Part shown: positions 17,367 through 34,496 of the stretch, in pieces | How positions within the stretch are numbered: the stretch's first letter is position 1 | How the letters are laid out: each line of letters opens with the position of its first letter | NCBI GenBank assembly: GCA_016934315.1 | Contig: JAFGSY010000045.1 | Location: forward strand, 4,361 to 68,360 | Length of the DNA stretch: 64,000 nt | Source: Candidatus Anaeroferrophillus wilburensis | GTDB lineage: Bacteria; Desulfobacterota; Anaeroferrophillalia; Anaeroferrophillales; Anaeroferrophillaceae | Reading direction: 5' to 3' | The notes under the pieces: model-generated | What the model was told of the DNA's origin: nothing | The model's database searches: none | Seen by the model: only the letters and a program-made list of their open reading frames with translations | Translations under genes and position numbers: made by a program

Positions 17367-17403
17367 TAAAAAAGCGGTGCCTGTCGGGCACCGCTTTTTT
17401 ATT
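17367..17403. terminator. bidirectional rho-independent terminator between convergent ABC ATPase gene and sucD
   Basis: aaaaaagcggtgcc-tgtc-gggcaccgc-ttttttatt: GC stem flanked by an A-run and a T-run. Confidence 0.8.
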
Positions 17404-17419
17404 TCGGGAAAATAACAGC

Positions 17420-18292
17420 TCAGGGCTTCAGCACCTGAACCACCGCCTCTCCAATGTCGGCCGGGCTTTTCACCACTTCGATCCCGGCAGCGGTCATGGC
17501 GGCCATCTTTTCGGCCGCGGTGCCCTTGCCGCCGGCAATGATCGCTCCGGCATGGCCCATGCGCCGCCCCGGAGGCGCCGTCTGCCCGGCGATGAAGCCT
17601 ACCACCGGTTTGGTCATGCAGTTGCTGACAAAAGCAGCCGCTTCCTCCTCGGCGGAACCGCCGATTTCGCCAATCATCACCACCGCTTCGGTTTCCGGGT
17701 CCTCCTCAAACAGGGCCAGCAGATCGATAAACTGGCTGCCGATGATCGGGTCACCGCCGATGCCGATGCAGGTGGACTGCCCCAGACCCCGTTCGGTGAG
17801 CTGTTTCACCGCCTCATAGGTCAGGGTGCCGCTGCGGGAGATAAGACCAACTTTGCCCTTCAGGTGGATAAAGCCAGGCATGATGCCCACCTTGGCTTCA
17901 TCTGGGGTGATCACCCCTGGACAGTTGGGGCCGACCAGCCGGGTTTGGCCATCATCAAGGTAGGCTTTGGCCTTCACCATATCGACGGTGGGGATCCCTT
18001 CGGTGATGCAGACCACCAGGTCAACCCCGGCATCAGCAGCTTCCATGATCGCATCAGCAGCAAAGGGGGGCGGCACAAAAATCAGCGACACGTTGGCACC
18101 GGTCTGCTGGACGGCACTCTCAACGGTATTGAATACCGGAATACCATCCATATCCTGGCCGCCCTTTCCAGGGGTAACCCCGGCAACCACCTGGGTGCCA
18201 TAGGCTACACACTGGCGAGTATGGAACATCCCTTCCTGGCCGGTGATCCCCTGGACGAGAATTTTTGAATCTTTATTAACTAAGATGGACAT
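17420..18292 (-). CDS. sucD: succinyl-CoA synthetase subunit alpha
   Basis: 290 aa [27 protein letters not shown]... Canonical SucD N-terminus and CoA-binding/His-phosphorylation region. Confidence 0.9.
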
Positions 18293-18353
18293 GCTTTTCT
18301 ACCTCCTCATCAGACATTACGAGATCAGTACCAGCACCGTGCGGCAGCTGGAA

Positions 18354-19517
18354 CTACTGGATGGCGGCCACCACTTTCTGGGCCGCGTCCGCCAGGCCCC
18401 GGCCGACAATCATGTCGATACCGGATTCCTCGAGAATTTTTGAGGCCTCTTCGGCATTGGTGCCTTCCAAGCGCACCACCAGCGGTACTTTGATTTCCAC
18501 CTGCTTGGTCGCTTCGATAATACCGTTGGCAATCCGGTCACAGCGGACGATGCCACCGAAGATATTGATCAGCACCGCCTTGACATTGGGATCGGAGAGG
18601 ATAATACGAAAGGCGTTGGCCACCCCTTCGGCATTGGCGCCGCCCCCGACATCGAGGAAGTTCGCCGGCTCACCGCCGGCCAGCTTGATGATATCCATGG
18701 TCGCCATGGCCAGGCCGGCCCCATTGACCATGCAGCCCACATTGCCATCAAGCTTGATATAGTTGAGACCGAACTTGGATGCCTCGATCTCCAGAGGCTC
18801 CTCTTCGGAAAGATCCCTGAGTTCCGTCCAACTGTCCTTGTGCCGGTACTGGGCATTATCGTCAAAGTTTATTTTTGCATCAAGAGCCAGAACCCGGCCG
18901 TCACCGGTAACCACCAGCGGATTGATCTCCAGCAGCGAGCAGTCATTGGCTTCAAAGGCTTTGAAGAGATTGATGAACATCCGCGACGCCTGGCGCACCA
19001 GCTGGGCATCCAAGCCGAGTTTATAGGCAATTTTGGCCGCCTGGAACGGCCGCAGACCCAGGAGCGGATGAACATATTCCTTGACAATTTTTTCCGGGGT
19101 TTCGGCGGCCACCTTTTCGATCTCCATCCCCCCCTCGGTACTGGCCATGATCACCGGCTGATTGGTGGCCCGGTCAATGACAATCCCGAAGTAGTATTCC
19201 TTCTGGATATCCATCCCCTCTTCCACCAGCAGCCTTTTGACTTCCTTGCCTTCGGGACCGGTCTGGTGGGTCACCAGTTGCATGCCGAGAATCTGCTTGG
19301 CTGTTTCATGGGCTTCGTCGGGACCGTTGACCACCTTGACGCCGCCGCCCTTGCCCCGGCCGCCGGCATGAATCTGGGCCTTGACTACCACGGTGCCGCC
19401 GCCCAGATCGATCGCCGCCTGTTTAGCATCATCGACGGTGAAGACGGCAAATCCCCTCGGAACCTCAACCCCGAAGTCCCGCAACAGTGCCTTCGCCTGA
19501 TATTCATGAATTTTCAT
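18354..19517 (-). CDS. sucC: succinyl-CoA synthetase (ADP-forming) subunit beta
   Basis: 387 aa [22 protein letters not shown]... ATP-grasp N-terminus and C-terminal CoA-ligase domain. Confidence 0.9.
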
Positions 19518-21389: not shown

Positions 21390-22187
21390 CTAAAGTTTTG
21401 TTTTGTCCTGGGGTTCCCAGCCGACACTGTCCTGGGGTTCCATTTCCCGGTCAACATACAGTTTCCGCAAGGTATCATGATCACTGCCCACCAGGTCAAG
21501 AAGCAGGGTATCATACTTATGCTCATTAATCTCCCCTACCCGGTTCTGAAGATGTTCCGCCTGGGGAACTTTATAGCGGGCGTACAGCCGGCGGCACATC
21601 TGTGCCAGGTGAAAGTGCTGGATCTGGGCCGGACAGCGGGACGAACACAAGCCGCACTGAATGCAGTCAAAAGAAAGCCGGGCAACCTTAGCCAGATCAC
21701 CGCGCATGGCAGCATTGACGTATTCCATCACTTCGATATCCATCGGACAGGCCTTGGTGCAGGTGTTGCAGGCCACGCACTTCATCACCTCCGGATAGAG
21801 TTTCATGATTGATTCCGCTGTTGCCGAAGTTTCCTCAATATTGTAGACTGCCCGGTTGGCGGGGAAAAACGGCACCTGGGTCAGGTACATATTCTCCTGA
21901 ACCACGGTTTGACAGGCCAGACCAAAGTGGAGATGATAATCTCCCAGTATCCGGTAGACCGTGCCGCAGGCACCACAGATGCCACCCCGGCAGCCGCAGG
22001 CCCGGATAAACTGATAACCGGCATATTCCGTCGCTTTCTGGATGGTCAGTGTTTCCGGCACCATGTACCGTTTACCCATAATGTAGATGGGCACCAGCCG
22101 GGTACCTTCAGGAAGTATGGCCCGATCACCGGTTGCAATCTTGAATTCTTTTTGTCCCTCACTCATATCCTTGTCCTCCTGCTTCAT
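21390..22187 (-). CDS. succinate dehydrogenase/fumarate reductase iron-sulfur subunit-like protein
   Basis: 265 aa. 2Fe-2S-like CGCRGGICGACG...C. Clusters CVACNTCTKACP and CIQCGLCSSRCP (both CX2CX2CX3CP). 64-bp gap to flavoprotein gene. Confidence 0.75.
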   Translation of the reverse strand: MKQEDKDMSEGQKEFKIATGDRAILPEGTRLVPIYIMGKRYMVPETLTIQKATEYAGYQFIRACGCRGGICGACGTVYRILGDYHLHFGLACQTVVQENMYLTQVPFFPANRAVYNIEETSATAESIMKLYPEVMKCVACNTCTKACPMDIEVMEYVNAAMRGDLAKVARLSFDCIQCGLCSSRCPAQIQHFHLAQMCRRLYARYKVPQAEHLQNRVGEINEHKYDTLLLDLVGSDHDTLRKLYVDREMEPQDSVGWEPQDKTKL

Positions 22188-22217: not shown

Positions 22218-23363
22218 TTATCTGGCCCCGGACTCATCCTGCAGTTCATCTTCTTTATAGGTGGTTACCGGCGCCGGTTCATCATAGCTGCGGCCGGGGA
22301 GATACTCGATTGCCTGCTGAGCCCGCATACCCACGGTGCGGAACAGCGACATCACCGGGATATCACTGGGACAGGCGGTATCACAAAGGCCACAACCGAT
22401 GCAGGAGGTGACCATGTGGTTAAGGCGGGTAGTATGAAACATCAGGGTATTGGCCGGCATCCGCATGGCCCCCTTACGCTCCGCCCAGCTCAGATATTGA
22501 TCCGGGGTATGCTCAAAGGTAGGGGAACGGAAAACACATTCACGGCAATAGCAGATGGGACAGTTGATCATACAGTTGTGACATCGGATGCAGGTGGAAA
22601 GCAGCTCCTGCATCCCCTTGAGGGAGCCGATACGCTGACCAAACTCACCCAGAACAACATCACGGTTGGCTGTCCGTGCCTTGGCAAGCTGGTCGATACA
22701 TTCCTGACGGGTTGGCGCTTCCTGACCATTGATTGCCAAAATGTCTTTGGCCGCAAAGGCATCAGCCAACTCATCCCGGACTGCCAGACACAGCTGTTTA
22801 GCCGTATCCACCCCCCAAAGACCGATCACCACATCAACAACCTCCGGATTCGGTGCCGGAAACTCGCAGATATCACAGGCACTGCGGAAGGCATAGCCAT
22901 CCAAAGGGGCAAAGCTACCAGCCGCCGCTTTCTGCCGCAGATCAGCAGCCGGATGATGACCTGCCTTGACCATCGCCGAATAGACCTTCGGCTCATAGGT
23001 TCCCAGGCAGTCGACGGCAATAATCATGATTGCCGAACGAATGATCTGCTGAAACTTGACCAGCTCGACGATGGCCCGCACTTCACATGGTTTGACTACC
23101 ACCCCGATCACCTCACCGGGTTCCCGGACCGCCAGGTTAGCGATAATCCTTGCCGACTGGACCGGCATCACCGGCACCGTCACATCGGTATCAGCCAGCA
23201 TGGCCGGATCCTTGATCAGGGCCTGGACATAGTTGTCGCCGCCGGTGTTCTTTTTCGGCACCAACAGGCTGCCCACCAGGCCGCTTGCCAGCAACCGGCT
23301 GAGAAAGCCGCTGATTTCTTCATTGTAATTATCGCTTTTCAGGTCGATAAGCGTCGATTTCAT
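22218..23363 (-). CDS. FrhB/FdhB-like (coenzyme F420 hydrogenase/dehydrogenase beta-subunit family) protein fused to 4Fe-4S dicluster domain
   Basis: Start set at MKSTLIDL (RBS GGAGACAG upstream; the longer ORF would overlap mvhD). FrhB-like region KPCEVRAIVELVK...IAVDCLGTYE. C-terminal CIRCHNCMINCP and CIGCGLCDTACP. Confidence 0.65.
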   Translation of the reverse strand: MKSTLIDLKSDNYNEEISGFLSRLLASGLVGSLLVPKKNTGGDNYVQALIKDPAMLADTDVTVPVMPVQSARIIANLAVREPGEVIGVVVKPCEVRAIVELVKFQQIIRSAIMIIAVDCLGTYEPKVYSAMVKAGHHPAADLRQKAAAGSFAPLDGYAFRSACDICEFPAPNPEVVDVVIGLWGVDTAKQLCLAVRDELADAFAAKDILAINGQEAPTRQECIDQLAKARTANRDVVLGEFGQRIGSLKGMQELLSTCIRCHNCMINCPICYCRECVFRSPTFEHTPDQYLSWAERKGAMRMPANTLMFHTTRLNHMVTSCIGCGLCDTACPSDIPVMSLFRTVGMRAQQAIEYLPGRSYDEPAPVTTYKEDELQDESGAR

Positions 23364-23383
23364 CACGTTCTCTGTCTCCGTAA

Positions 23384-23821
23384 TTAGATATCCCATTCCT
23401 GGGCCAAAGGATTGGCCCCCTGCTCTTCCAGAGCGCCACTGAATTCCCGCACCGTTTCGACAAACAGGCGCCCCTCGCTGGCGCTGATCCACCGTAGCCA
23501 GACCCGGTCGGCATCCATCCCCAGGCAGGCCATGATTTCCCGCAAGAGCGCTATGCGGCGCCGGGCCTTGAAGTTGCCGCTCTGGTAGTGGCAGTCACCC
23601 GGATGACAACCGCCGATCATCACCCCGTCGGCACCTTCCAGGATGGCTTTCAAAACATAGACAACGTCGATGGCTCCCGAACACATCAGGTGAATCACCC
23701 TGATCCCGGATGGATACTGCTGCCGGGTGGTGCCGGCAAGATCGGCACCGGTATAGGTGCACCAGTGGCATAAGAATGCGACAATCCGCGGCTCAAAATT
23801 TTCCGACATAACTTCCCTCAC
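23384..23821 (-). CDS. mvhD: MvhD-like (methyl-viologen-reducing hydrogenase delta subunit family) protein
   Basis: 145 aa with FLCHWCTYTGADLAG ... CSGAIDVVYVLKAILEGADGVMIGGCHPGDCHY, the hallmark Cys pattern of MvhD/FlxD. Confidence 0.8.
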   Translation of the reverse strand: MREVMSENFEPRIVAFLCHWCTYTGADLAGTTRQQYPSGIRVIHLMCSGAIDVVYVLKAILEGADGVMIGGCHPGDCHYQSGNFKARRRIALLREIMACLGMDADRVWLRWISASEGRLFVETVREFSGALEEQGANPLAQEWDI

Positions 23822-23892: not shown

Positions 23893-26800
23893 TTAAAACA
23901 GTCGATTGACCATCGCCATCACCTGGCCCTTGTCAAACCCGTACTGCTGGGTGGCCCCGTTGGGACAGACGGAAGCACAGCTTCCACAGCCATGACAGAG
24001 ATCATAGTGAACATCGGCAATCCTAGTCTCCTGGTTCAGTTCCCGGGCCCCGTAGGGGCAGGCTTCAACGCAGAGGCCGCAGCCGCTGCACAGGCGGGTG
24101 CTGACGGTCACCGCCGTTTTTTCACTGACCAGCTCGCCCTTGCCCAGCACCGTCGCCGCCCTCGCCGCCGCCGCCCGGGCCCGGATCAGCGTTTCATTGA
24201 TATGCAGCGGAGCGGATGCCAGACCGCAATGGTAGCGTCCTTCACCAACAAAATCAACCAGGGCTGCTTTGGCATTCGCTTCCTGGTAGAAGCCGAAATC
24301 ATCAAGGGGCAGACCCAGCAACCGGGAAAGCTCACCAACTTCATGAGGTTCGACCCCGGTGCTCAAGACCACGTAGTCGGCCGCCAGCGAAAGCTTCTGC
24401 TGGAGAATCTGATCATCATAGGTGACCTGCAGGCTATGACTGCCGATCTCGACAACCGGCTTCTGCTCCACGTCATAGGTGGTAAAGAGCACTCCGGCTT
24501 CACGGGCCCGGCGGTAATCATCCTCATAGAGGCCATAGGCGCGCAGATCACGGTAAAGAACCACAACTTCAAGGGTCGGGTTAAGTTCTTTCAACTTCAG
24601 GGAATTTTTCAGGGCATGGGTGCAGCAGACCCGACTGCAGTATTCCCGTTTTCCCCGCTCACGGGAACCGACACATTGGATCATCACCACCCGTTGAAGA
24701 TTTTTCAGGGCTTCACCATTCGTGGCAACCAGCGATTCCAGTTCAGACTGCGTCAAAACCCGCTCGTCCTGACCCCGGAGATACTCATCGGTTGACGCTT
24801 CCCGGCCACCGGTGGCCATCACCAGCACCCCGTGACGGATCAGATGATCAGTCTGATCGTCATCCAGGCGAAAGATGGTGGTATAGTTGCCGGTCCGCCC
24901 TTCATGATGGCTCACTGTCGCCCGGCAGTATACGTCCAGATTCTCCTGGGCCGCAACTGCCTGACGCAGCTTTTCAACCAGCTGCTTAGGCTCCCCTCCC
25001 CTGAGGGTGTAGTGGGAATCCTTGGCCAACCGGCCGCCCAGCTGTTCCTCTTTCTCCAGCAAGGTTACAGGATAACCGCGGCCGGCCAGGGAAAGGGCGG
25101 CCGTCATGCCGGCAACGCCACCGCCGATCACCAGGGCCCGCTGATCAACCGCAATGGTCTGTACAGCCATCGTCTGCCGACTGCCGAACACCTGGGTAAT
25201 GGCTGCCTGCAGCAACGCTCTGGCCTTCGCGGTCGCCGCCTGACGATTGTTGTCATGAACCAGGGAACACTGTTCCCGCAAATTAGCCAGGGCGAAAAAA
25301 GCGCTGTTGAACCCGGCCAGACGGGCAAATTCGTCGCACTGACGTTCCATCTCCCGCACGGAACAAGCACCCAGCACCATCCGGTTCAATGAATGCTTGC
25401 CGATGGCCTGCTGGACGATGGCAAAGCCACCGGTGATGCAGGCATTGTCGATAATTTCCACATGGGCCACATGGGGCTCGGTCCGCACAGCCGCCGCCAG
25501 TGACTCCAGATCCAGCTGCTCTTCCAGCAGACCGCTGCAGCGGCAGAGAAAAACACCAATCCGCGGCCTTTCCTCCCAAACCGCCCCTTCCCGGGGCATC
25601 TTCGGACACTGCTCAGCGGCCGGTTCCCGGCTTACGGCAGCGGCAATCAGATCGGCGGCACAGGCCGCTTCCATCACTGTTTCAGGAATATCTTTGGGGC
25701 CGGTAAATGCCCCGGCCGCATAGATCCCGGCAACCGATGTTGCGGCTGGAAAAAATTCATCGGGACGGCAGAAACCATAATCATCAAGAGCATCGGCCGG
25801 CAAACCGGTACAATCGAGGATCGGGGCATCAAAACCGAGGGAGAGAACCACCAGGTCAAACTCCTCCTCCCGCCGGCGGCCATGATCATCAGCAATCAGG
25901 CGTAACTTCCGGCTTTGGGGATCCTCCTTGACGGTGGAGATCATCGACCGCTGGTAGCGAATGCCGTAGTGCTCTTCGGCTTCCCAGAGATAGCGCTCGT
26001 ACTCCTTGCCCATGCCGCGGAGATCCATGTAATAGATGGTGACCTCGGTTTCCGGCAGCCGTTTTTTGAGAAACATGGCCTGCTTGGTGGCATACATGCA
26101 GCAGACACTGGAGCAGTAACCACGGCCGCAGGCAATGTCCCGGGAACCGGCACACTGGATAAAAGCCACCCGTTCAGGAGCGGAACCATCGGTCAGCAGC
26201 CGGGGAGCACCACCAGTCGGGCCAGAATAGCTGATCATCCTCTCCATCTGACGGCTGGTAATGACATTGGCATAGCGACCGAAGCCGAACTCCCCCTTCA
26301 ACGTGCCCTCAACCAGGGAAAAACCCGGGGTCAGCAGGATCGCCGCCACCTGTTCATCACGCTGTCCGGTTGGCATATCCAGGTCGATCGCCTTGGTGGG
26401 GCAGATGTCGACACAGGCGCCGCAGCGGTTGCAGGCGGCGGCATCAATACGGTAGCCCGCCTTCACCATTTTTGGATACTGTTTATAAATTGCCTTGCGC
26501 TCCTCCAGCCCGCCGCTGAATTCATCGGCAACGGCAACCGGACAGACGTCACTGCATTTGCCGCAGTCGATGCACTTGTCCTGATCGACACCATGGGGAT
26601 CGACAGCCAGGGTGACGATAAAATCGCCCTGCTCGCCGGCAATGGCCAGCGGCCTGGCATTAACCTGGATTTCAAGATTCTGGTGCAGGCGGCACTCAAC
26701 AAAGGGACAATAAGCCGGCTGGCGAGGCGATAAAAAGCAGACGCCGCAGGAGTTCGTCGGAAAGGTGTTGTCCAGCAGAGGGAAAAATCCGCCGATGGCC

Positions 26801-26937
26801 GCCTCTTTTTCCACCAGGCAGACGGCGTGACCTTGCTCCGCCAACAACAGAGATGCTGTCATGCCGGCAAAACCACCGCCGACCACCATAATTTTTTTCT
26901 TGTCCGCAGAGTTACTCATCACGCCTGTTACACCCAT
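23893..26937 (-). CDS. giant HdrA-like flavoprotein: tandem fusion of two HdrA modules (1014 aa)
   Basis: Two FAD folds (MVVGGGFAGMTASLL; LVIGGGVAGMTAALSL). Two HdrA Cys clusters (CAGSRDIACGRGYCSSVCCMY; CVGSRERGKREYCSRVCCTH). Three or more ferredoxin CX2CX2CX3CP motifs. Real start may be the internal MSNSADKKK. Confidence 0.8.
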   Translation of the reverse strand: MGVTGVMSNSADKKKIMVVGGGFAGMTASLLLAEQGHAVCLVEKEAAIGGFFPLLDNTFPTNSCGVCFLSPRQPAYCPFVECRLHQNLEIQVNARPLAIAGEQGDFIVTLAVDPHGVDQDKCIDCGKCSDVCPVAVADEFSGGLEERKAIYKQYPKMVKAGYRIDAAACNRCGACVDICPTKAIDLDMPTGQRDEQVAAILLTPGFSLVEGTLKGEFGFGRYANVITSRQMERMISYSGPTGGAPRLLTDGSAPERVAFIQCAGSRDIACGRGYCSSVCCMYATKQAMFLKKRLPETEVTIYYMDLRGMGKEYERYLWEAEEHYGIRYQRSMISTVKEDPQSRKLRLIADDHGRRREEEFDLVVLSLGFDAPILDCTGLPADALDDYGFCRPDEFFPAATSVAGIYAAGAFTGPKDIPETVMEAACAADLIAAAVSREPAAEQCPKMPREGAVWEERPRIGVFLCRCSGLLEEQLDLESLAAAVRTEPHVAHVEIIDNACITGGFAIVQQAIGKHSLNRMVLGACSVREMERQCDEFARLAGFNSAFFALANLREQCSLVHDNNRQAATAKARALLQAAITQVFGSRQTMAVQTIAVDQRALVIGGGVAGMTAALSLAGRGYPVTLLEKEEQLGGRLAKDSHYTLRGGEPKQLVEKLRQAVAAQENLDVYCRATVSHHEGRTGNYTTIFRLDDDQTDHLIRHGVLVMATGGREASTDEYLRGQDERVLTQSELESLVATNGEALKNLQRVVMIQCVGSRERGKREYCSRVCCTHALKNSLKLKELNPTLEVVVLYRDLRAYGLYEDDYRRAREAGVLFTTYDVEQKPVVEIGSHSLQVTYDDQILQQKLSLAADYVVLSTGVEPHEVGELSRLLGLPLDDFGFYQEANAKAALVDFVGEGRYHCGLASAPLHINETLIRARAAAARAATVLGKGELVSEKTAVTVSTRLCSGCGLCVEACPYGARELNQETRIADVHYDLCHGCGSCASVCPNGATQQYGFDKGQVMAMVNRLF

Positions 26938-26965: not shown

Positions 26966-27787
26966 TTAAAACAGCCCCGAGGGATCATTGAAATGCTTCT
27001 TCCACCAGCGGGGACGATTGCCGATCTGGAACGCCTCAGCCATCATTTCAGTAAAATAGAGGATCGGCAACCGCTGCTGACGGATATCGACATTGGCCTG
27101 GCACAAAGCACAGGAGGTCACCATGCAATCCACCCCGGCAGCAACGGCATAATCAGTAATCCTGTTGACCAGTTTGGCCGCCTTATCGGGATGGGTCAAC
27201 CCCAGGTCACTGCCGCAGCAATCCACCTTGCAGGACCAGTCAACCACCTCCGCCCCCAGATCCGCCATCAAACGGTCAAGTCGCTGGGGGTTTTCCACAT
27301 CATCGGAACCGGTCACCTCCTGGGGACGGATAATGGCACAACCGTAGTAGCAGACCACTTTCAGACCGCTCAGGGGCTTTTTCACCAGCCCCTTGATCTG
27401 CTCCCGCCGCTGGTCATCGGCAAGGAGGTCGACGATGGACAGCATGCTGATCGTCCCGGAATAGGTAAAACCCAGCAGAGCTTCCAGCTCTTTTTTCTTT
27501 TCCGGATCGGTTTGCAGCACCCGCTGGGCCCGTGCCAGGTTATTGAAACAACCGGCACAGGGAATCACCAGATCTGCACCCTGCTTTTCAGCCTCGGCTA
27601 TATTAAAGGCCGACAGGCCAAGAGCCAGGGACTGGGAGAGATTATGGGCAGAGGCAGCCCCGCAGCAGGACCAATCGGGCAACTCTGCCAGCTCGATGCC
27701 CATTGCCGCCATCACCGCATGGCTGGCTTCGATATACTCAACCGCAGTGGAGTGATTGGTACAGCCTGGATAGTAGGAATATTTCAT
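26966..27787 (-). CDS. hdrB: heterodisulfide reductase subunit B-like protein (two CCG domains)
   Basis: MKYSYYPGCT...PDWSCCGA...VVCYYGCAIIRP...DWSCKVDCCGS... CCG-domain Cys patterns. Confidence 0.8.
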   Translation of the reverse strand: MKYSYYPGCTNHSTAVEYIEASHAVMAAMGIELAELPDWSCCGAASAHNLSQSLALGLSAFNIAEAEKQGADLVIPCAGCFNNLARAQRVLQTDPEKKKELEALLGFTYSGTISMLSIVDLLADDQRREQIKGLVKKPLSGLKVVCYYGCAIIRPQEVTGSDDVENPQRLDRLMADLGAEVVDWSCKVDCCGSDLGLTHPDKAAKLVNRITDYAVAAGVDCMVTSCALCQANVDIRQQRLPILYFTEMMAEAFQIGNRPRWWKKHFNDPSGLF

Positions 27788-27816
27788 AATATATCAGAAT
27801 ATCAAAGTGTTAATAA

Positions 27817-28347
27817 CTATTTTACACCTGACTTATCAAATATTTCTTTTATCTTCTTAATATTCTTTGATTTTTTTGGAAGAATGGGAATTTTTCCCTT
27901 AAGGAAGAGCTTTAGGCCCACATCGACATCGGTAGTAAAATTCCTGGTTTTCATTTTATACTGCATGAGCATGGTGGCTTCATGAATGCGGCCGAAAGTC
28001 CGGATGCTGCCGGTGAAAGCCCGGTGAAAATCCACCGTCACCTGATCCGCAGGCGCAATCCCCTCTTGCAGACACATCTCCCGCAGGACATCCATTACCG
28101 GTGCCGTTTTGATACCGTTTGGGCAGCGGGTGCCGCAGGTTTCACAGGAAACACACATCCAGATTGCTTTGCTGCGCAGCAGCTCATCCTTCATCCCCAA
28201 TTGAATCATCCGCATCACCATGTTGGGCGGATAATCAAAGTCATCCACCGTCGGACAGCCAAGGGTGCATTTGCGGCACTGGTAGCAGAGATTGACGGGT
28301 TGGCCGCTTCGGGCCACTACCTGCTCGAGAAAGGTTTGCTCAGCCAT
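27817..28347 (-). CDS. hdrC: heterodisulfide reductase subunit C-like protein
   Basis: 176 aa. CYQCRKCTLGCP and CVSCETCGTRCP ferredoxin motifs in HdrC arrangement. Confidence 0.8.
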   Translation of the reverse strand: MAEQTFLEQVVARSGQPVNLCYQCRKCTLGCPTVDDFDYPPNMVMRMIQLGMKDELLRSKAIWMCVSCETCGTRCPNGIKTAPVMDVLREMCLQEGIAPADQVTVDFHRAFTGSIRTFGRIHEATMLMQYKMKTRNFTTDVDVGLKLFLKGKIPILPKKSKNIKKIKEIFDKSGVK

Positions 28348-30332
28348 TACTCAGCTCCTTGCTCCACCAGCTCCAGAGCCGGGCTTTCCTGAACAAAATC
28401 ACCAATCATCCGGATAAATTGACAGGAGGTTGAATTCACCAGTTCACATGCTTTATTGGGGCAGGCGGAGATACAGGCGCCGCAGCCCTGGCAGACCGCT
28501 TGGTTGACCTCGGAAATTCGGCTGAAATCATTCATCACCCGTGCTCCGTAGGGACAGATTTCCACACAGATGCCGCAGCCGCTGCAGACATCGTCCTTGA
28601 CTTCGGCAATCAGCGGATCGGCAATCAGAGTTTCATTGGAAAACAGGGTCTGAATTTTTCCGGAAGTGGCTAAAGCCTGGGAAACCGTATCAGTTATATC
28701 TTTGGGTGACTGGCAACAACCAGCCAGGTAAACACCCTTGGTGGAGCTTTCCACCGGATAGAGCTTGATATGGGTTTCAGAGAAAAATCCCTCTTCGTCC
28801 ACCGTCACCCGCATCTTCTTGGCCAGCTCTTTGATGCCAGCCCGCGGCTCCATCGCCAGGGCGAGAACCACCAGATCGGCATCGATCTCAACTTTTCTGC
28901 CCGTCAGGGTGTCAGCGGTCCAGACTTTTAGACTCTGGTTTTCCGGAAAAATTTTAGCCACCCGGCCGCGAATATAGACCAGCCGGTCCTCCTCCATCCC
29001 CTGCTGGACAAACTCCTCAAAATCGCGGCTGTCGGAACGGATATCCATATAGGAGATATATGCCATCCCCTCCGCCACCTGCTGGCGGTACTGACGAGCC
29101 TGTTTGGCAACATACATGCAGCAGGCCCGGGAGCAGTAGGGCTTATGCCGTTCAGGGTCACGGGAACCGACGCACTGGACAAACACCACACTCCTGGGAA
29201 TCCGGCCGTCGGAAGGGCAGACAACTTTACCGCCGGTTGGCCCCAGGGGATCAAGCATCCGCTCCATGGCCAGACCATCTATTACATCAGGATAGCGGCC
29301 GCCGCCATATTCGGGAAACTGCCGCTGGTCATACAGGTCATAACCGGTGGCCATGATAATCGCACCAATCTTCTCCACCTCAGACTCCGGCTCAGCGGCA
29401 AAAGAGATCGCCGCTTCACTGCAAGCCTGGAAACATTTATCGCAACTGCCATCGGCAACGTGCAGGCAGGCATCCTGATCGACAACCGGCTTCAGCTCCT
29501 GACCACCATATCGGTAGATTGCGCCGCGGGTGGTCAGTCCGCGATCAAAAGCATTGGGCAGTTGAACCGGACAGACCTCCAGACAGGCACCGCAATTGGT
29601 ACAAAGCTCCTGGTTGACATAGGCAGCCTGGGTGGCAATGGTAACCTCAAAATTACCCACGTAGCCATCCAGGTCAGCTACTTCGGCATTGCAGTACACC
29701 TTGATGTTCGGGTGCGCCATCACCTCCTGCACCTTGCGGCCAAGCATGGCTGGCACATCCTGAAAATAGGGAAAGGTTTTTCCCAGCTGCCGCATATGGC
29801 CGCCGATGGCTGGCTGCTTTTCCACCATGGCCACGTCATAGCCGGCATCGGCAAGATCCAGGGCCGCCATGATTCCGGCAATACCGGCACCTACCACCAG
29901 TACCCGTTTATTAAGCGAGATGGTAATGGTTTCCAACGGGATATTGTCGCGCACCTTATCCAGGGTGGCCTCGATGATATTGATCGCTTTAGCAGTGGCC
30001 ACCGGCTTATTATTCTGATGGACCCAGCTGCACTGTTCGCGGATATTGGCGATTTCCACCAGGTAGGAATTCAGCCCCACGAGACCGGCTGCCTTGCGGA
30101 AGGTATTTTCGTGCATCCGGGGCGAGCAGCAGGCCACCACCACCCCGTTGAGCCCTTCTTTTTCAATGGTATCTTTCACCAACTGCTGGCCGGGATCAGA
30201 ACACATGTACATGTAGTTCTCGGCATGCTTGACATCCTTACATTTCCGGACCTCTGTCACCACCCGGTCGACATCAACACTACCGGCAATATTGGAACCG
30301 CACCAGCAGACAAAAACCCCTATTTTTTTCAT
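28347..30332 (-). CDS. hdrA: heterodisulfide reductase subunit A-like flavoprotein
   Basis: 661 aa. N-terminal Cys domain MKKIGVFVCWCGSNIAG. FAD fold VLVVGAGIAGIMAAL. CVGSRDPERHKPYCSRACCMY. Inserted and C-terminal ferredoxin domains (CTNCGACLEVCP, CSGCGICVEICP, CQGCGACISACP). Confidence 0.85.
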   Translation of the reverse strand: MKKIGVFVCWCGSNIAGSVDVDRVVTEVRKCKDVKHAENYMYMCSDPGQQLVKDTIEKEGLNGVVVACCSPRMHENTFRKAAGLVGLNSYLVEIANIREQCSWVHQNNKPVATAKAINIIEATLDKVRDNIPLETITISLNKRVLVVGAGIAGIMAALDLADAGYDVAMVEKQPAIGGHMRQLGKTFPYFQDVPAMLGRKVQEVMAHPNIKVYCNAEVADLDGYVGNFEVTIATQAAYVNQELCTNCGACLEVCPVQLPNAFDRGLTTRGAIYRYGGQELKPVVDQDACLHVADGSCDKCFQACSEAAISFAAEPESEVEKIGAIIMATGYDLYDQRQFPEYGGGRYPDVIDGLAMERMLDPLGPTGGKVVCPSDGRIPRSVVFVQCVGSRDPERHKPYCSRACCMYVAKQARQYRQQVAEGMAYISYMDIRSDSRDFEEFVQQGMEEDRLVYIRGRVAKIFPENQSLKVWTADTLTGRKVEIDADLVVLALAMEPRAGIKELAKKMRVTVDEEGFFSETHIKLYPVESSTKGVYLAGCCQSPKDITDTVSQALATSGKIQTLFSNETLIADPLIAEVKDDVCSGCGICVEICPYGARVMNDFSRISEVNQAVCQGCGACISACPNKACELVNSTSCQFIRMIGDFVQESPALELVEQGAE

Positions 30333-30353
30333 CGATGTTTTTCCCGTTATTCC

Positions 30354-31739
30354 CTATTCAGCAGCCGCCGACTGCCGGCCACGGCGCAAAGATGAGAGAA
30401 ATACCTGTACCTTGCTGGCCGCCGCGCTGCCCTGGGCAACACTGTCGGCAATATCCTTGGTCCCCTGACAGCAGCCGGCCAGGAAAATCCCTTGCTGCCC
30501 GCTGTCAATAGGAGCCAGCTTATAATCCTCTTCAACGAAGAAACCGTCCTTATTGCACCTGATGCCAAGGATATCAGCCAGTTTTTCCGCCCCTTCATTG
30601 GGAACCATGGCTGCGGCCACCACCACCAGATCAGCGGCGATCTCAACCTTTTTACCACTCAGGGTGTCAGCTCCCCAGACCATCACCTTATCACCCTGCT
30701 GAACCAACTTGGCAGCCCGACCCCGAAGATAGACCAGGTTTTCTTCAGAGGTTGACTGCTGGAGAAACTGCTCATAGCCCTTGCCGGTGGTTCGCAGGTC
30801 AATGTAAAAAATATAGGCTTGCCCGTCATGGACCTTATGCTTATAGAGTCGGGCATGCTTGGCGGTATACATGCAGCAGACCCGTGAGCAGTAGGATTTA
30901 TGCAGCTCCGGGTTCCGGGAACCGACACACTGGATGAACACCACATCCCGGGGCACCCGACCGTCCGACGGCCGAAGAACCTTGCCAGCGGTGGGCCCGG
31001 AGGCCGAGAGAAAACGCTCCATGGTCAGCCCGTCAATAACGTCGGGTATCATTCCGCCGCCCAGTTCCGGCATGTTACGTTTCCAGTCGTAGATATCAAA
31101 ACCGGTGGCCACCACAATGGCCCCCACCCGCTCCTCGAAAAAACTGTCCTGCTGCTCGAAATCAATCGCCCCCACCGGGCAGACCTTGGCACAGACACCG
31201 CACTTGCCCTTCGTAAGGTAGCGGCAGAACTCCTCGTTAATCACCGGCTTGTTGGGCACCGCCTGGGGAGACGGGGTATAGATTGCTTTCATTGTCCCGG
31301 CATCACGCTCGAAAAGGGAGAAATTCTTAGTCGGACACTTCTCCACACAAGTGCCGCAGCCGGTACACTTGCTCCAGTCAACATAGGCCCGCTTCTGGCG
31401 GATACTGACGGTGAAATCACCCGGCTGGCCACTGAGGCCTTCCACTTCACAGTAAACCTTCAGCTGGACATTGGGGTGCTGGCCCGTTTCCACCGTTCTG
31501 GGAGTCAGGGTACACTGGGCGCAATCAAGGGTGGGGAAAGTTTCGGACAGCTGCAGCATCCGGCCGCCAATCGCCGACAGCCGCTCCACCAGAACCACCT
31601 GGTACCCGGCGCTGCCGAGATCGATGGCGGTGGTAATCCCGGCAATGCCGCCGCCGATCACCATAACCCGTCGATCTACGGGTACAGTTGCTGCCGGTGC
31701 CTTTTGCTGCTCTTCACTCATCTGCACAACGTCTCCCAT
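30354..31739 (-). CDS. second HdrA-like flavoprotein (shorter, QmoA-like length)
   Basis: 461 aa. VMVIGGGIAGITTAI, CVGSRNPELHKSYCSRVCCMY, CTGCGTCVEKCP. Lacks the N-terminal Cys domain of the 661-aa paralog. Confidence 0.8.
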   Translation of the reverse strand: MGDVVQMSEEQQKAPAATVPVDRRVMVIGGGIAGITTAIDLGSAGYQVVLVERLSAIGGRMLQLSETFPTLDCAQCTLTPRTVETGQHPNVQLKVYCEVEGLSGQPGDFTVSIRQKRAYVDWSKCTGCGTCVEKCPTKNFSLFERDAGTMKAIYTPSPQAVPNKPVINEEFCRYLTKGKCGVCAKVCPVGAIDFEQQDSFFEERVGAIVVATGFDIYDWKRNMPELGGGMIPDVIDGLTMERFLSASGPTAGKVLRPSDGRVPRDVVFIQCVGSRNPELHKSYCSRVCCMYTAKHARLYKHKVHDGQAYIFYIDLRTTGKGYEQFLQQSTSEENLVYLRGRAAKLVQQGDKVMVWGADTLSGKKVEIAADLVVVAAAMVPNEGAEKLADILGIRCNKDGFFVEEDYKLAPIDSGQQGIFLAGCCQGTKDIADSVAQGSAAASKVQVFLSSLRRGRQSAAAE

Positions 31740-31751
31740 GCCTCGCGCCCC

Positions 31752-32630
31752 CTATTCGACTCCGATCCCTTTGGCCTGCAGCATGGGCAGCGGATCGATG
31801 AGATTACGTTCAAACCCGAGTTCAGCCACCGGTAATTCCAAGGCCAGGGCCAGCAGCTGGGTGAAATAGACCACGGGAATCTGCTCGAAGGAGGGGTCGG
31901 CTTTTTTTATCTCCGGCTGCCGGTCATCCAGATTGAACTGGCACAAGGGGCAGGTGGTGATCACCAGGTCGGCACCGCAGTTTCTGGCACTGTTGAGAAT
32001 ATCCCGTGAACAGCGGGTGGCCAGATCCATAGAATGGACGGTCTGGAAGGCGCTGCAGCATTCAATTTTAAAAGGGAAATCAACCGGCTCCGCTCCCAAA
32101 GCACGGACAAAATCCTCAAAGATGGTGGGATTTTCCATGCTGTCAAGGCCGATCTCCTTCACCGGCCGCAGCAGCAGACAACCATAGTAGCAGGCGACCT
32201 TCAGGCCTTCCAGTGGCTTGCTGATCTTCTCAGCCAGCTGGTCAAAACCCAGTTCATCACGCAGAACCTGAAGGTAATGCAGCACTTCGGTCTCACCATG
32301 ATAGTCCCGTTCAATAAAATCGGTAATCTTAGCCCGCCGTTCTTCATCGGTGCGCATGACGTGATTGGTGCGTTTGAGCACATTGTAGCAGACCGAGCAG
32401 AGCGCCACCAGCTTATCACTGCCCTGCTCCTTGGTGTCGGCAAGTATCCGGGTGGGGCCGGACATGGCGATATGATAATCATTCACCAGCGGAAAGGTTG
32501 CCCCGCAGCAGGTCCAGTCGGGAAGCTCATCCAGCTCAAACCCCAGGCGCCGGCTGCACTCACGACCGGCATCATCGAGCTTCTTGGCTTTGGTGTAGAG
32601 GGTACAGCCCGGGAAGTAGGTATAGTTCAT
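31752..32630 (-). CDS. second HdrB-like protein (CCG domains)
   Basis: MNYTYFPGCT...PDWTCCGA...VACYYGC...IECCSA...TTCPLCQFN. Confidence 0.8.
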   Translation of the reverse strand: MNYTYFPGCTLYTKAKKLDDAGRECSRRLGFELDELPDWTCCGATFPLVNDYHIAMSGPTRILADTKEQGSDKLVALCSVCYNVLKRTNHVMRTDEERRAKITDFIERDYHGETEVLHYLQVLRDELGFDQLAEKISKPLEGLKVACYYGCLLLRPVKEIGLDSMENPTIFEDFVRALGAEPVDFPFKIECCSAFQTVHSMDLATRCSRDILNSARNCGADLVITTCPLCQFNLDDRQPEIKKADPSFEQIPVVYFTQLLALALELPVAELGFERNLIDPLPMLQAKGIGVE

Positions 32631-32661
32631 CTGCTAACTCCAAAAAAAGTATGCCAATCTC

Positions 32662-33078
32662 TTACAGCGAGAGAAATTTGCGATAGCCGCTGATCATGGC
32701 TATCTGTGGTGCCCTCTCAAGATAATCATCATCGAAATCCGTAACATCAATCCGGGAATTATGCTCATCCTCCCGCAGGCGCAGCACCCGCAGGGCATCC
32801 ATAATCTTGGAAATATCCACCCCCTTGGGGCAGCGGGCATGACACATGAGGCAGGCGGCGCACACCCACATGGATTTACAGGTTTTCACCTCTTCCACCA
32901 GGCCAAGCTGCAGATAGCGGACCACCTGGCTGGGCAGCAGATCCATCTCTTCCACCGATGGGCAGCCAGCCGAACAGTTTCCGCACTGATAACAGTTAAA
33001 GAAATTCTCACCGCTGATTTCCGCCACTTTCTGGACAAAATCGGCGCGGACGGTATCCTGAGAAATCGTTGCTTTCAT
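32662..33078 (-). CDS. second HdrC-like protein
   Basis: Start set at MKATISQ (avoids large overlap with fumB). CYQCGNCSAGCP and CAACLMCHARCP. Confidence 0.7.
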   Translation of the reverse strand: MKATISQDTVRADFVQKVAEISGENFFNCYQCGNCSAGCPSVEEMDLLPSQVVRYLQLGLVEEVKTCKSMWVCAACLMCHARCPKGVDISKIMDALRVLRLREDEHNSRIDVTDFDDDYLERAPQIAMISGYRKFLSL

Positions 33079-33088
33079 GGCCTTTCCC

Positions 33089-33643
33089 CTATTTCTGGTA
33101 CTGGCTGACTCCCTGCTCATACAGGTCATTGCCGTAAATATCATTGACCACCACCACCGGAAAATCCTCTACCTCCAGACGGCGGATGGCCTCCGGCCCT
33201 AAATCCTCATAAGCAATCACTTCCGCCTTTTTGATCCGCTGGGCCAACAGGGCACCTGCTCCGCCCACTGCGGTGAAGTATATCCCCTTATAGGTCTTCA
33301 TGGCATCTTTTACCGCCTGACTGCGCCCCCCCTTGCCGATCATGCCCTTGAGTCCATGGGCCAGCAGGGTGGGAGAATAGGAATCCATGCGGTAGCTGGT
33401 CGTCGGTCCGGCAGCACCGATGGCATGCCCCGGCCGGGCCGGGGTCGGCCCGACAAAATAGATAATCTCCCCCTGCAACGGCAATGGCAGTTCTTTGCCC
33501 TGCTCCAGCAGATCCACCAGACGTTTATGGGCCGCATCCCGCCCGGTGTAGATCGTTCCACTGATCAAAACCCGATCGCCGCTGCGCAGGCGCTCCACAT
33601 CAGCATCGGTCAATGGCGGAGTCAGGCGAATAGCTTCACTCAT
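33089..33643 (-). CDS. fumB: class I fumarate hydratase (Fe-S hydro-lyase) beta subunit
   Basis: Start at MSEAIRLTPPLTDADVERLRSGDRVLISG. C-terminal catalytic domain of two-subunit class I fumarase/tartrate dehydratase family. Confidence 0.7.
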   Translation of the reverse strand: MSEAIRLTPPLTDADVERLRSGDRVLISGTIYTGRDAAHKRLVDLLEQGKELPLPLQGEIIYFVGPTPARPGHAIGAAGPTTSYRMDSYSPTLLAHGLKGMIGKGGRSQAVKDAMKTYKGIYFTAVGGAGALLAQRIKKAEVIAYEDLGPEAIRRLEVEDFPVVVVNDIYGNDLYEQGVSQYQK

Positions 33644-33656
33644 AGCAACCTCTTTA

Positions 33657-34496
33657 TTAAATGACAACCTCTTTATGCCGAGCGGCATGACATTGAATAT
33701 TGATGGCCAGCGGCAGACTGGCAATATGGCAGGGCAGCATCTTGACATGGACGGCAAAACTGGTCACCCGGCCGCCAAGCCCCTGGGGACCGATGCCAAG
33801 TTCATTAATCGCTGCCAGCAGATCCTTTTCCAGCAGGGCAAGTTCTGGGTCGGCACTGGGGTCCCCGGCCGGACGCAGCAACGCCTCTTTGGCCAGCAGG
33901 GCAGCCCGCTCAAAGGTACCGCCGATACCGACCCCGACAATGGTGGGCGGACAGGGATTGGCACCGGCCTGCTGCACCCAGGCAACCACCTCCCGCTTGA
34001 TCCCCTCAATGCCGTCAGCAGGTTTGAGCATCACCACTTTTGACATATTCTCACTGCCGCCGCCTTTGGGGGCAACAATGATTTTAACTTTGTCTCCGGG
34101 AACCAGGGAATAATGAATGATGGCCGGCGTATTGTCGCCGGTATTCTTGCGGGTAAAGGGATGGCAGGATGATTTTCGCAGAAAACCTTCCTGGTAGCCG
34201 CGTCGGACACCGTCGTTGATGGCGGCTGACAAATCACCACCAACCAGGTGAACCTCCTGGCCCACTTCAACAAAGACAACCGCCAGACCGGTATCCTGAC
34301 AGATGGCTACCCGATCATGGGCGGCAATAGCAGCATTTTCCTGCAGCTGTTTGAGGATATCAATACCGGTGGGCGACTCCTCGCGGTCGATGGCAGTGGC
34401 AATCACCGCCTGCATGTCATCACCAAGTTCGTAATTGGCCGCCATACAGAGACTGGCCACAGCATCACTGATACTACCTACTGCAATTTCCCGCAT
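33657..34496 (-). CDS. fumA: class I fumarate hydratase (Fe-S hydro-lyase) alpha subunit
   Basis: 279 aa MREIAVGSISDAVASLCMAANYELGDD ... CQDTG ... C. N-terminal domain of the Fe-S hydro-lyase family with Cys ligands. Confidence 0.7.
   Translation of the reverse strand: MREIAVGSISDAVASLCMAANYELGDDMQAVIATAIDREESPTGIDILKQLQENAAIAAHDRVAICQDTGLAVVFVEVGQEVHLVGGDLSAAINDGVRRGYQEGFLRKSSCHPFTRKNTGDNTPAIIHYSLVPGDKVKIIVAPKGGGSENMSKVVMLKPADGIEGIKREVVAWVQQAGANPCPPTIVGVGIGGTFERAALLAKEALLRPAGDPSADPELALLEKDLLAAINELGIGPQGLGGRVTSFAVHVKMLPCHIASLPLAINIQCHAARHKEVVI

Follow-up and report, generated by a model that had tools for sequence, protein, structure and literature searches.

A fused HdrA protein with two flavin cores and one set of accessory iron-sulfur domains, encoded between fumarase and succinyl-CoA synthetase genes in Candidatus Anaeroferrophillus wilburensis

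We analyzed a 64,000-nucleotide stretch of the genome of Candidatus Anaeroferrophillus wilburensis (assembly GCA_016934315.1, contig JAFGSY010000045.1, positions 4,361 to 68,360; hereafter, the window), in which one gene encodes a HdrA-like protein of 1014 amino acids (aa), here called HdrAA. HdrAA is one authentic gene and not two joined genes, and it belongs, as an ordinary case, to a class of fused HdrA proteins that is widespread and was recognized before. As a joint best explanation of the data, it is likely a fused, asymmetric "double HdrA," in which two anciently diverged modules act as dimer partners of each other. Tentatively, and with the balance still against it, we also propose that electron bifurcation by HdrAA is at the heart of a soluble Hdr-type fumarate reductase that has not yet been characterized and in which the fumarate/succinate couple would drive the reduction of ferredoxin. 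The features of the gene are as follows, with residues compared to the structure of a methanogen HdrA (5ODC) and to BamE, a subunit of the class II benzoyl-CoA reductase of Geobacter metallireducens; FAD denotes flavin adenine dinucleotide, TrxR the thioredoxin reductase-like core, and FeS iron-sulfur.

23893..26937, minus strand: fused double-HdrA gene (HdrAA), from the list of open reading frames (ORFs) and the translation, the match to HdrA, and the identical ORF in independent assemblies.
25618..26898, minus strand: half 1, TrxR-like FAD module 1 (aa ~14-440), with GGGFAG at aa 20-25; phmmer, alignment, profiles, and Foldseek.
26734..26763, minus strand: motif FPTNSC64GVC67F, equivalent to HdrA Cys194/Cys197 and BamE Cys59/Cys62, in half 1 only; mapped by alignment with 5ODC.
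26353..26601, minus strand: inserted ferredoxin (aa ~113-195), 2 x [4Fe-4S], C122/125/128/132 and C169/172/175/179, sole copy; Pfam Fer4 and alignment with 5ODC.
26083..26154, minus strand: cluster motif 1, C262-AGSRD...C275-SSV-C279-C280-MYAT-K285, with K285 aligned to HdrA Lys409 and BamE Lys280; sequence and alignments.
25567..25632, minus strand: linker between the halves (aa ~436-457), low confidence; AlphaFold2 confidence and breakpoint of the split homologues.
25183..25566, minus strand: internal copy of the "N-terminal" FeS domain of HdrA (aa ~458-585), C465, C467, C500, C525, and C557, sole copy; aligns with 5ODC 2-135.
24133..25152, minus strand: half 2, TrxR-like FAD module 2 (aa ~596-935), with GGGVAG at aa 605-610; Pfam, phmmer, alignment, and profiles.
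24607..24675, minus strand: cluster motif 2, C755-VGSRE...C767-SRV-C771-C772-T773-HAL-K777; sequence and alignments.
23929..24120, minus strand: C-terminal ferredoxin (aa ~940-1003), 2 x [4Fe-4S], C950/953/956/960 and C981/984/987/991, sole copy; Pfam and phmmer.

The match to the solved HdrA is far above chance (5ODC_A, E = 1.2e-135 in phmmer). Domains were mapped with phmmer against 5ODC, with Pfam and NCBIfam profiles, and with a five-way alignment of both halves, 5ODC, and two unfused HdrA proteins that are also encoded in the window (HdrA461 and HdrA661, see below). In the phmmer search, aa 36-369 corresponded to HdrA 166-495, which is the TrxR core with the inserted ferredoxin and the cluster; aa 456-638 corresponded to HdrA 2-183, the N-terminal FeS domain and the beginning of the FAD fold; and aa 867-1012 corresponded to HdrA 501-648, the end of the core and the C-terminal ferredoxin. 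Pfam placed the starts of the dinucleotide folds at aa 15-46 and 600-640 and the Fer4 domains at aa 117-187 and 944-995. According to the five-way alignment, half 1 has the CxxC motif and the inserted ferredoxin and contains neither the N-terminal FeS domain nor the C-terminal ferredoxin, while half 2 (aa ~458-1003) has exactly these two domains and is devoid of the CxxC motif (Cys194/Cys197) and the insert. Likewise, half 1 covers only positions 139-554 of the NCBIfam HdrA2 profile, and half 2 covers the stretch of the N-domain plus positions 310-639, with the insert skipped.

The flavin core is thus present twice and everything else once. G20/G22/G25 with E43 and G605/G607/G610 with E628, the latter of each set being the acidic residue at the end of beta-2, make up two FAD folds, and both halves carry the [4Fe-4S] site of HdrA, CxGSR[DE]...CSxxCC, together with a lysine five residues past the CC. 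Neither module has the four-domain set of HdrA, and each accessory element is found once per whole chain. In line with the listed motifs, HdrAA is predicted to bind two FAD and seven [4Fe-4S] clusters. Its scores are below the cutoffs for methanogen HdrA and HdrA2 (NF041778, 693.8 versus 1100 bits; NF041891, 554.3 versus 1300 bits; NF040770, 553.8 versus 1400 bits). An initial annotation of the window had ascribed to each half a FAD dinucleotide fold and a HdrA-specific cluster, and both motifs indeed occur twice and are conserved; the FAD fold of the second half, the integrity of which was to be checked, is kept (GGGVAG at aa 605-610) and has a [4Fe-4S] site of its own. The same annotation spoke of "two complete HdrA modules," a description that does not survive the domain mapping, in which the cores share a single accessory complement. 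It was also right in that there are two ferredoxin domains with 2 x [4Fe-4S] each, but these are non-equivalent domains of HdrA, present in one copy each, rather than a ferredoxin set for either half.

How widespread this architecture is became clear from a protein search with HdrAA, which returned 7301 relatives at an E value of ≤1e-10. Among the top 120, 117 have a length of 996-1057 aa and a match that extends over 98-100% of the query. In species-representative genomes, a scan yielded at least 548 confirmed relatives, of which the best 80 loci were used for all locus comparisons (designated L001 onward where a single locus has to be named). These loci match nearly all of the 1014 residues. 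They span no fewer than seven bacterial phyla, and the groups represented are Thermodesulfobacteriota/Deltaproteobacteria, Syntrophaceae, Syntrophorhabdales, Chloroflexota, Nitrospirota, Spirochaetota, Actinomycetota, WOR-3, and Bipolaricaulia. The ORF is intact, with 998-1117 aa, in 75 of the 80; the other five are three genes cut by contig ends, one with an in-frame TGA (L069), and one with an in-frame TAG (L051). With so many relatives in many phyla, and with the architecture already in the literature, a single polypeptide with two flavin sites is not "unusual," as had been assumed at first.

Conservation was determined from an alignment of 76 sequences (HdrAA and 75 full-length homologues). 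All 28 cluster cysteines are conserved, those of the N-domain-type FeS domain in 68-76 and the rest in all of the 76 sequences. C64 and C67 are kept in 76/76, the lysine expected near the flavin N5 in 76/76 (K285) and 71/76 (K777), and the GxGxxG glycines of both halves in 72-76/76. The two halves share 29.9% identity over 331 shared core columns, which is below the identity of either half to archaeal HdrA (39% for half 1 and 35% for half 2). These values argue for an old fusion of diverged paralogues, and a recent tandem duplication was rejected on the same grounds. An origin from HdrA461 and HdrA661 is not supported either, these two proteins being 50% identical to each other and only 30-35% identical to the halves of HdrAA. 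An AlphaFold2 model computed from 63 sequences reached a mean predicted local distance difference test score (pLDDT) of 83.5 and a predicted template modeling score of 0.85; weak regions are aa 53-63 and 74-81 (pLDDT of <50) and the linker (aa 441-460, pLDDT of 51-66). Both halves superpose on solved HdrA in Foldseek, which gave template modeling (TM) scores of 0.78 for the full protomer 8rvy_A (649 columns) and of 0.85-0.88 for HdrA chains that consist of the core only.

Homologues in which the halves are encoded by adjacent, separate genes break at the position of the HdrAA linker (L072, L013, and L050). In L072, a TrxR1-type gene is followed by a 565-aa gene that aligns with aa 449-1014; the 446-aa gene of L013 aligns with aa 17-440, and the 612-aa gene of L050 aligns with aa 459-1014. 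In one fused gene from Nitrospiraceae (L069, ...NDCAM*I...) and one split gene from Syntrophobacteraceae (L072, ...NDCAL*I...), the codon equivalent to C67 is TGA, which probably encodes selenocysteine. HdrA of M. maripaludis has a selenocysteine (U197), and the match of the two TGA codons to this residue suggests that the CxxC pair of module 1 is functionally critical. The in-frame TAG of L051, from a member of the Dehalococcoidia, is at aa 120. By codon reading, the sites are located as follows.

L069, 9998-10400: in-frame TGA.
L072, ~14734-15064: in-frame TGA.
L051, 158-800: in-frame TAG.

Four further cysteines, C77, C82, C270, and C390, are invariant or nearly so in the clade with an FdhB-like neighbor gene and absent from the MetVF-linked clade; C77 lies within a 6-residue insertion that follows the CxxC motif. 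They are near the flavin and the cluster of module 1, and an additional metal or cluster site, or else disulfides, might be built from them, possibly for the wiring of an SdhAB-type partner. In three loci that keep the full gene cluster described below (L028, L029, and L031), the internal FeS domain has lost two to three of its five cysteines (the equivalents of 467, 500, and 525), C82 and C270 are missing as well, and the low-potential branch may be altered or absent there.

Fused and tandem HdrA proteins have been described as heterodimers, in which Cys197 and the N-domain are complementary, and the HdrA associated with MetFV in Moorella shows the same complementary loss (Chadwick et al. 2022, PMC9012536). 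In the complex purified from Moorella, HdrA contains two FAD, and bifurcation has been proposed for one of them (Buckel & Thauer, PMC5861303). In a cryo-electron microscopy preprint (bioRxiv 10.64898/2026.04.10.717634), BamE is called a "fused HdrA dimer"; it comprises two TrxR domains, each with a FAD, and the clusters E1-E7. Bifurcation is assigned to the FAD of TrxR1, which has Lys280 at N5 and the disulfide Cys59-Cys62 adjacent to it; the FAD of TrxR2 is non-bifurcating (Gln768), lies off the branch point, and is given a structural role. Electrons enter BamE via the C-terminal ferredoxin and the MvhD-like adaptor BamF; the high-potential exit leads from E4 to the HdrBC/D-like BamD, and the low-potential exit is made up of E3 and the inserted ferredoxin. 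BamD passes electrons from its HdrBC-like site to a protein (ETF) and not to a disulfide (bioRxiv 10.64898/2026.04.10.717634).

HdrAA resembles BamE in its two TrxR domains, the two FAD and seven [4Fe-4S] clusters predicted for it, its C-terminal ferredoxin, MvhD-like adaptor, and HdrBC/D-like partner. By their published numbers, the landmark residues of BamE correspond to C64/C67, K285, and T773, always with an offset of +5, which fits colinear chains. Homology to BamE is suggested by this numbering and by a relative linked to AOR (L079, from a metagenome-assembled genome [MAG] of the Syntrophorhabdales with the order HdrD-HdrAA-MvhD-AOR), which is 39% identical to HdrAA. In contrast, the low-potential exit of BamE is hard-wired to the tungsten enzyme BamBC and its input is BamGHI, neither of which is found at the window locus, and Gln768 of BamE is replaced by Thr773 in HdrAA.

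A second close relative is the MetFV-HdrABC-MvhD complex of Moorella, which shares with the window locus hdrC-hdrB upstream, mvhD downstream, and a HdrA with two FAD (predicted in the case of HdrAA). The comparison with this type was made via a homologue from a Thermodesulfovibrio MAG (L053): in L053, with the order HdrC-HdrB-HdrAA-MvhD-MetV-MetF, HdrAA is colinear over residues 6-1011 of the query with 38% identity. The two types differ in the partner, which is MetVF in the MetFV type and an FdhB-like protein plus SdhAB in the clade of the window. Furthermore, the MetFV clade does not have the 6-residue insertion with C77, or C82, C270, and C390, and in module 2 the CC is followed by Gln instead of the Thr of HdrAA. 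The architecture common to the MetFV and BamE types, i.e., a Cys197 unit, an internal FeS domain, a second core, and a C-terminal ferredoxin, is found in HdrAA and is colinear in 75 loci, including L053 and L079. The neighborhood is also that of this family, with HdrC2/HdrB2 upstream and MvhD downstream at distances of 28 and 83 bp, an arrangement common to most loci.

All the domains of the HdrA of methanogens (5ODC, 7BKB, and 8RVU; MvhAGD- and FdhAB-HdrABC) are found in HdrAA, and HdrB, HdrC, and MvhD are neighbors of HdrAA as well. However, methanogen HdrA has ~650 aa and forms a symmetric homodimer with 12 clusters and two equivalent FAD, whereas HdrAA has two diverged cores, one accessory set in permuted order, and seven predicted clusters. 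The fused HdrA3/HdrA4 and the tandem HdrA5/6 and HdrA12/13 of anaerobic methanotrophic archaea (ANME; PMC9012536) resemble HdrAA in combining a unit that has the N-domain and no Cys197 with a unit that has Cys197 and no N-domain. In ANME HdrA3/4, the unit with the N-domain comes first; HdrAA begins with the Cys197 unit and has the "N-terminal" domain in its interior. The reversed order suggests that the two fusions arose independently. Fused architectures are not treated in a preprint on HdrA evolution (bioRxiv).

HdrL of Desulfobacterium autotrophicum and Syntrophobacter fumaroxidans is likewise a large, soluble, HdrA-like protein followed by mvhD, and in S. fumaroxidans an FdhB-like FeS protein and hdrABC are encoded close by. 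By its description, HdrL is set apart as a fusion of HdrA with a glutamate synthase-type protein with NAD(P)H-binding domain(s), whereas HdrAA has only two FAD cores of the HdrA type. Membership in HdrL was rejected, since PRK12771-type profiles match only at the start of the dinucleotide fold (83 versus 516 bits); an additional GltD-like or NAD(P)H domain was not found with Pfam, NCBIfam, or phmmer, and HdrA domains account for all of the sequence. QmoA and QmoB were also rejected, as no Qmo family was matched by either half at an E value of ≤1e-15. The cluster has neither a membrane subunit (QmoC) nor aprAB, and HdrC2 matches qmoC only in the soluble FeS part (70 versus 300 bits).

The genes around HdrAA, all on the minus strand, are given here from the head of the cluster to its tail.

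33089..34496, minus strand: fumarate hydratase of class I, alpha (33657-34496) and beta (33089-33757, with an uncertain start), head of the cluster; Pfam Fumerase, 9.4e-113, and Fumerase_C, 1.7e-60.
28347..33144, minus strand: unfused Hdr set, HdrC1 (32662-33144, start uncertain), HdrB1 (31752-32630), HdrA461 (30354-31739), and HdrA661 (28347-30332); Pfam, NCBIfam, and alignment.
26966..28347, minus strand: HdrC2 (27817-28347) and HdrB2 (26966-27787, two intact CCG motifs), directly upstream of HdrAA; Pfam, NCBIfam, and cysteine pattern.
23384..23809, minus strand: MvhD/FlpD-type [2Fe-2S] adaptor, 141 aa, directly downstream of HdrAA; Pfam FlpD, 1.3e-47, and present in nearly all loci.
22218..23366, minus strand: FdhB/FrhB-like flavo-FeS subunit, 382 aa; matches to Protein Data Bank (PDB) entries and a weak match to Pfam FrhB_FdhB_C.
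21390-22187, minus strand: SdhB-like FeS protein, similar to the N-terminal part of TfrB; Pfam, NCBIfam, and synteny.
19649-21325, minus strand: SdhA/TfrA-like flavoprotein with Asn134 at the position of the FAD-linking His; Pfam, NCBIfam, alignment, and synteny.
17420..19517, minus strand: succinyl-CoA synthetase, SucC (18354-19517) and SucD (17420-18292), tail of the cluster; Pfam and synteny.

This order of 15 genes, FumAB-HdrC1B1-HdrA461-HdrA661-HdrC2B2-HdrAA-MvhD-FdhB-like-SdhB-SdhA-SucCD, is found in at least 20 species-level MAGs, with HdrAA identities of 44-65%. In the PDB, the FdhB-like protein is matched best by FdhB subunits from Fdh-Hdr complexes (9t1s_M, 1.6e-25; 8rvu_E; and 7bkb_E), and its gene is present in 35 of the 80 loci. 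Its longest ORF (22218-23492, with a GTG start) overlaps MvhD by 108 nucleotides, and the fumarase beta ORF overlaps alpha; independent gene calls put the start of the FdhB-like gene at 23366, and the coordinates of the longest ORF are therefore misleading. HdrA461 has the Cys194/197 motif and the inserted ferredoxin but neither N-domain nor C-terminal ferredoxin, and HdrA661 has the N-domain and both ferredoxin domains, with "TFPYFQDVPAML" in place of the Cys197 motif. The two are thus a tandem pair of the heterodimer type, complementary in the same manner as the halves of HdrAA, and are preceded by their own HdrC1/HdrB1 but have no MvhD of their own.

A census of the genes that follow HdrAA-MvhD in the 80 loci gave these partner sets.

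FdhB-like, SdhB, and SdhA: 20-21 loci.
FdhB-like without Sdh, with HdrD upstream, in Chloroflexota: about 14 loci.
MetV and MetF: 21-24 loci.
FdhB-like and a molybdopterin FdhA-like protein, in Actinomycetota (L062, L064, and L077): 3 loci.
AOR: 1 locus.
A second fused HdrA: 2 loci.

As these sets show, the fused HdrA serves as a generic core whose partner modules are exchangeable. The three loci from Actinomycetota are a bacterial, fused-HdrA counterpart of the FdhAB-MvhD-Hdr arrangement of methanogens. Two fused double-HdrA genes are close together in L033 and L059; the genes of L033 are arranged as HdrCB-HdrAA-MvhD-FdhB-like-HdrC-like-HdrAA, with 40% identity between the second HdrAA (15265-18294) and the protein of the window.

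From the conserved gene context, we give a little less than an even chance to the proposal that HdrAA, HdrC2B2, MvhD, the FdhB-like protein, SdhB, and SdhA form a soluble, Hdr-type electron-bifurcating fumarate reductase. In the SdhA-like protein, Asn134 (GDANTVMAEGG) replaces the His to which FAD is covalently bound, and Asn is found at this position in 21 of 21 syntenic homologues; the catalytic motifs HPTG, R(GLG), H(YQNGG), and R(LMGNS) are intact in the alignments. Variants of FrdA/SdhA with non-covalently bound flavin reduce fumarate and oxidize succinate poorly, and in view of this the Asn is more suggestive of the reduction of fumarate than of the oxidation of succinate. By sequence, the SdhA-like protein fits a fumarate-reducing member with non-covalent FAD. 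It also has an N-terminal extension of ~95 aa ahead of the FAD domain. Its best NCBIfam match is TfrA (1.6e-99), with 334 bits against a cutoff of 718 bits. The SdhB-like protein, HdrC2, and HdrB2 tile the TfrB profile at positions 21-175, 131-238, and 264-464, each far under the cutoff of 385 bits, and HdrB2 also matches the CCG subunit SdhE (3.8e-46). SdhBA directly follow the FdhB-like gene, with gaps of 30-64 bp, in all 20-21 loci of the clade, and genes for a quinone-reactive or membrane subunit are missing from the cluster.

In the proposed complex, a hydride donor of medium potential (F420H2 or NAD(P)H) would come in by way of the FdhB-like flavoprotein. Fumarate, with a potential of about +30 mV for the couple, would be the high-potential acceptor, reached via HdrCB and/or SdhB, and ferredoxin would be the low-potential acceptor, so that the reduction of fumarate would be coupled to the reduction of ferredoxin. 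With textbook potentials, such a bifurcating fumarate reduction is exergonic. Fumarase, SdhAB, and SucCD would make up the reductive branch of the tricarboxylic acid (TCA) cycle that is served by the complex, and the conserved position of the cluster between the genes for fumarase and SucCD suggests that the complex may feed the next ferredoxin-dependent step of this branch. TfrAB and the type E enzymes FrdABEF/SdhABEF are likewise soluble and without heme or membrane anchor. However, TfrB is a single fusion, the segments of which are split over three genes in the window, and neither TfrAB nor FrdABEF has the fused HdrA, MvhD, and FdhB-like subunit that are found in the cluster. An archaeal co-location of Ehe and SdhA has been reported. 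No description of Hdr-linked SdhAB or of a bifurcating fumarate reductase was found in the literature, although most subscription papers were outside the search and this is weak evidence.

Two observations weigh against the proposal of a bifurcating fumarate reductase. The order with SdhBA after the FdhB-like gene mimics that of FdhA in L062, and by this analogy SdhAB would belong to the input branch, a position that is thermodynamically awkward. In addition, HdrD-HdrAA-MvhD-FdhB-like occurs in Chloroflexota without SdhAB.

The same complex might work in reverse as a confurcating succinate dehydrogenase, in which succinate and reduced ferredoxin would together reduce the carrier of medium potential. 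This would solve the problem of uphill succinate oxidation in syntrophic and sulfate-reducing Thermodesulfobacteriota; the lineage of the host and the homologues from MAGs of Syntrophaceae and Thermodesulfobacteriota would suit such a role, and the flanking fumarase and SucCD run in either direction. With the His for covalent FAD missing from the SdhA-like protein in 21/21 loci, and with a cluster that is devoid of quinone or membrane subunits, we regard the reverse direction as unlikely.

Alternatively, the HdrAA complex and SdhAB might be neighbors that are functionally separate. HdrAA-HdrCB-MvhD-FdhB-like would then reduce a thiol/disulfide carrier (DsrC-like or another "bacterial heterodisulfide") together with ferredoxin, which we consider improbable, and the same holds for the idea that SdhAB would use that thiol or another carrier in the manner of a split thiol:fumarate reductase. 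The retention of both CCG motifs in HdrB2, which are expected for non-cubane clusters, agrees with a disulfide as the substrate, as do the Chloroflexota loci without SdhAB, and the tiling of TfrB by the SdhB-like protein, HdrC2, and HdrB2 is reminiscent of thiol:fumarate reductase. On the other hand, the strict adjacency of SdhBA and the FdhB-like gene in all 20-21 loci is at odds with separate functions, a gene for a thiol carrier is not evident in the cluster, and the HdrBC-like site of BamD donates electrons to a protein rather than to a disulfide.

If the proposal of a bifurcating fumarate reductase is true, flavin-based electron bifurcation would gain a high-potential acceptor that is new to it. 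Orphan soluble SdhAB operons with an undocumented role have been noted in Syntrophus and Syntrophobacter, and the proposal would explain such operons in syntrophic Deltaproteobacteria. The fumarate reductase-linked placement of a fused HdrA is apparently undescribed, and it joins MetVF, FdhA, and AOR as interchangeable partners of the fused-HdrA family. For the HdrAA ORF itself, little changes, and the database label "HdrA family protein" is adequate. What our data extend to a large bacterial family, by sequence evidence, is the understanding of such proteins as built-in heterodimers that was gained with ANME, Moorella, and BamE; the extension is based on the single accessory set with 28 cysteines conserved in 76 sequences, the break at the linker shared by split and fused forms, and the selenocysteine at the position of Cys197 in some members.

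Regarding the mechanism of HdrAA, a single bifurcating flavin is probably present, as judged by analogy. The homologous canonical HdrA, the HdrA of Moorella, and BamE suggest that it is the flavin of module 1 that bifurcates. The high-potential electron would travel via the cluster of module 1 (C262/275/279/280) to HdrC2/HdrB2, and the low-potential electron via C64/C67 to the internal FeS domain and the clusters of the inserted ferredoxin and from there either to ferredoxin or to a bound partner. Module 2, along with its FAD and its cluster, would be mainly a scaffold that stands in for the second protomer of the HdrA homodimer. The CxxC pair, the FeS domain of the N-terminal type, and the two ferredoxins (inserted and C-terminal) are present once each, and this argues for a single branched pathway.

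Several points count against this assignment of roles. The division into one bifurcating and one structural flavin comes from a single, non-peer-reviewed structure of BamE and was mapped onto HdrAA by published residue numbers. Module 2 is strongly constrained, with its cluster cysteines conserved in 76/76 and K777 in 71/76 sequences, and in view of this conservation the second FAD could have a catalytic role. Moreover, the two HdrCB pairs at the locus could in principle serve two flavins.

The model of the initial annotation took up this last idea in a stronger form: two bifurcating flavins, each with its own partner, for example SdhAB and the FrhB/FdhB-like protein, or the two HdrCB pairs. 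In favor of this model, the FAD motifs are intact in both halves, the adjoining [4Fe-4S] sites are conserved in all 76 sequences, each half has a lysine of the N5 type (K285 and K777), two HdrCB pairs are encoded at the locus, and Moorella HdrA binds two FAD. However, with accessory elements in single copy, the wiring for input, high-potential exit, and low-potential exit is complete for only one flavin, and the second flavin of BamE is away from the branching point. The second HdrCB pair adjoins HdrA461/HdrA661 and, because of this unfused pair beside it, does not call for the fused protein. Two bifurcating flavins that serve two partners are thus disfavored by the single-copy accessories and by the structural role of the second flavin in BamE, and we consider this model quite improbable.

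The HdrAA ORF starts with ATG, has 1014 codons, and contains no internal stop codon on the minus strand; a plus-strand reading of 23893-26937 was rejected because its translation is full of stops. A second ATG at 26919, six codons further in, has a slightly better Shine-Dalgarno-like context than the first and would give the 1008-aa product recorded at NCBI. The ORF had been placed at 23893-26937, without mention of the strand, and these coordinates turned out to be exact, with the gene on the minus strand. The accompanying argument that the lack of an in-frame stop speaks against a join is also sound, given the intact ORF in assemblies of two runs, in two NCBI records, and in 75/80 related loci. 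Separate assemblies of the runs SRR13394436 and SRR13394437 contain the same 1014-aa ORF, flanked both times by HdrB and MvhD, and the 1008-aa form is found as an identical protein in two MAG records at NCBI. That two adjacent hdrA genes were merged through an assembly error or a sequencing frameshift has, despite the existence of unfused neighboring halves in L072, L013, and L050 and as HdrA461/HdrA661 in the window, a negligible probability in view of the identical ORF in these independent assemblies and records, its intactness in related loci from different studies, and the uniform length of 117 of the top 120 database homologues.

Elsewhere in the window, neighboring genes for a DUF3300 protein (455 aa) and a DUF2950 protein (327 aa) are located on the plus strand at 10780-13179, followed by two ORFs (13451-15116) without a Pfam match. 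Upstream of the fumarase genes, at 34955-39113 on the minus strand, are two HMGL-like genes (of the HMG-CoA lyase/carboxyltransferase type), an enoyl-CoA hydratase gene, and an acyl-CoA dehydrogenase gene, and from these annotations a leucine/isovalerate pathway or a related acyl-CoA pathway is possible.

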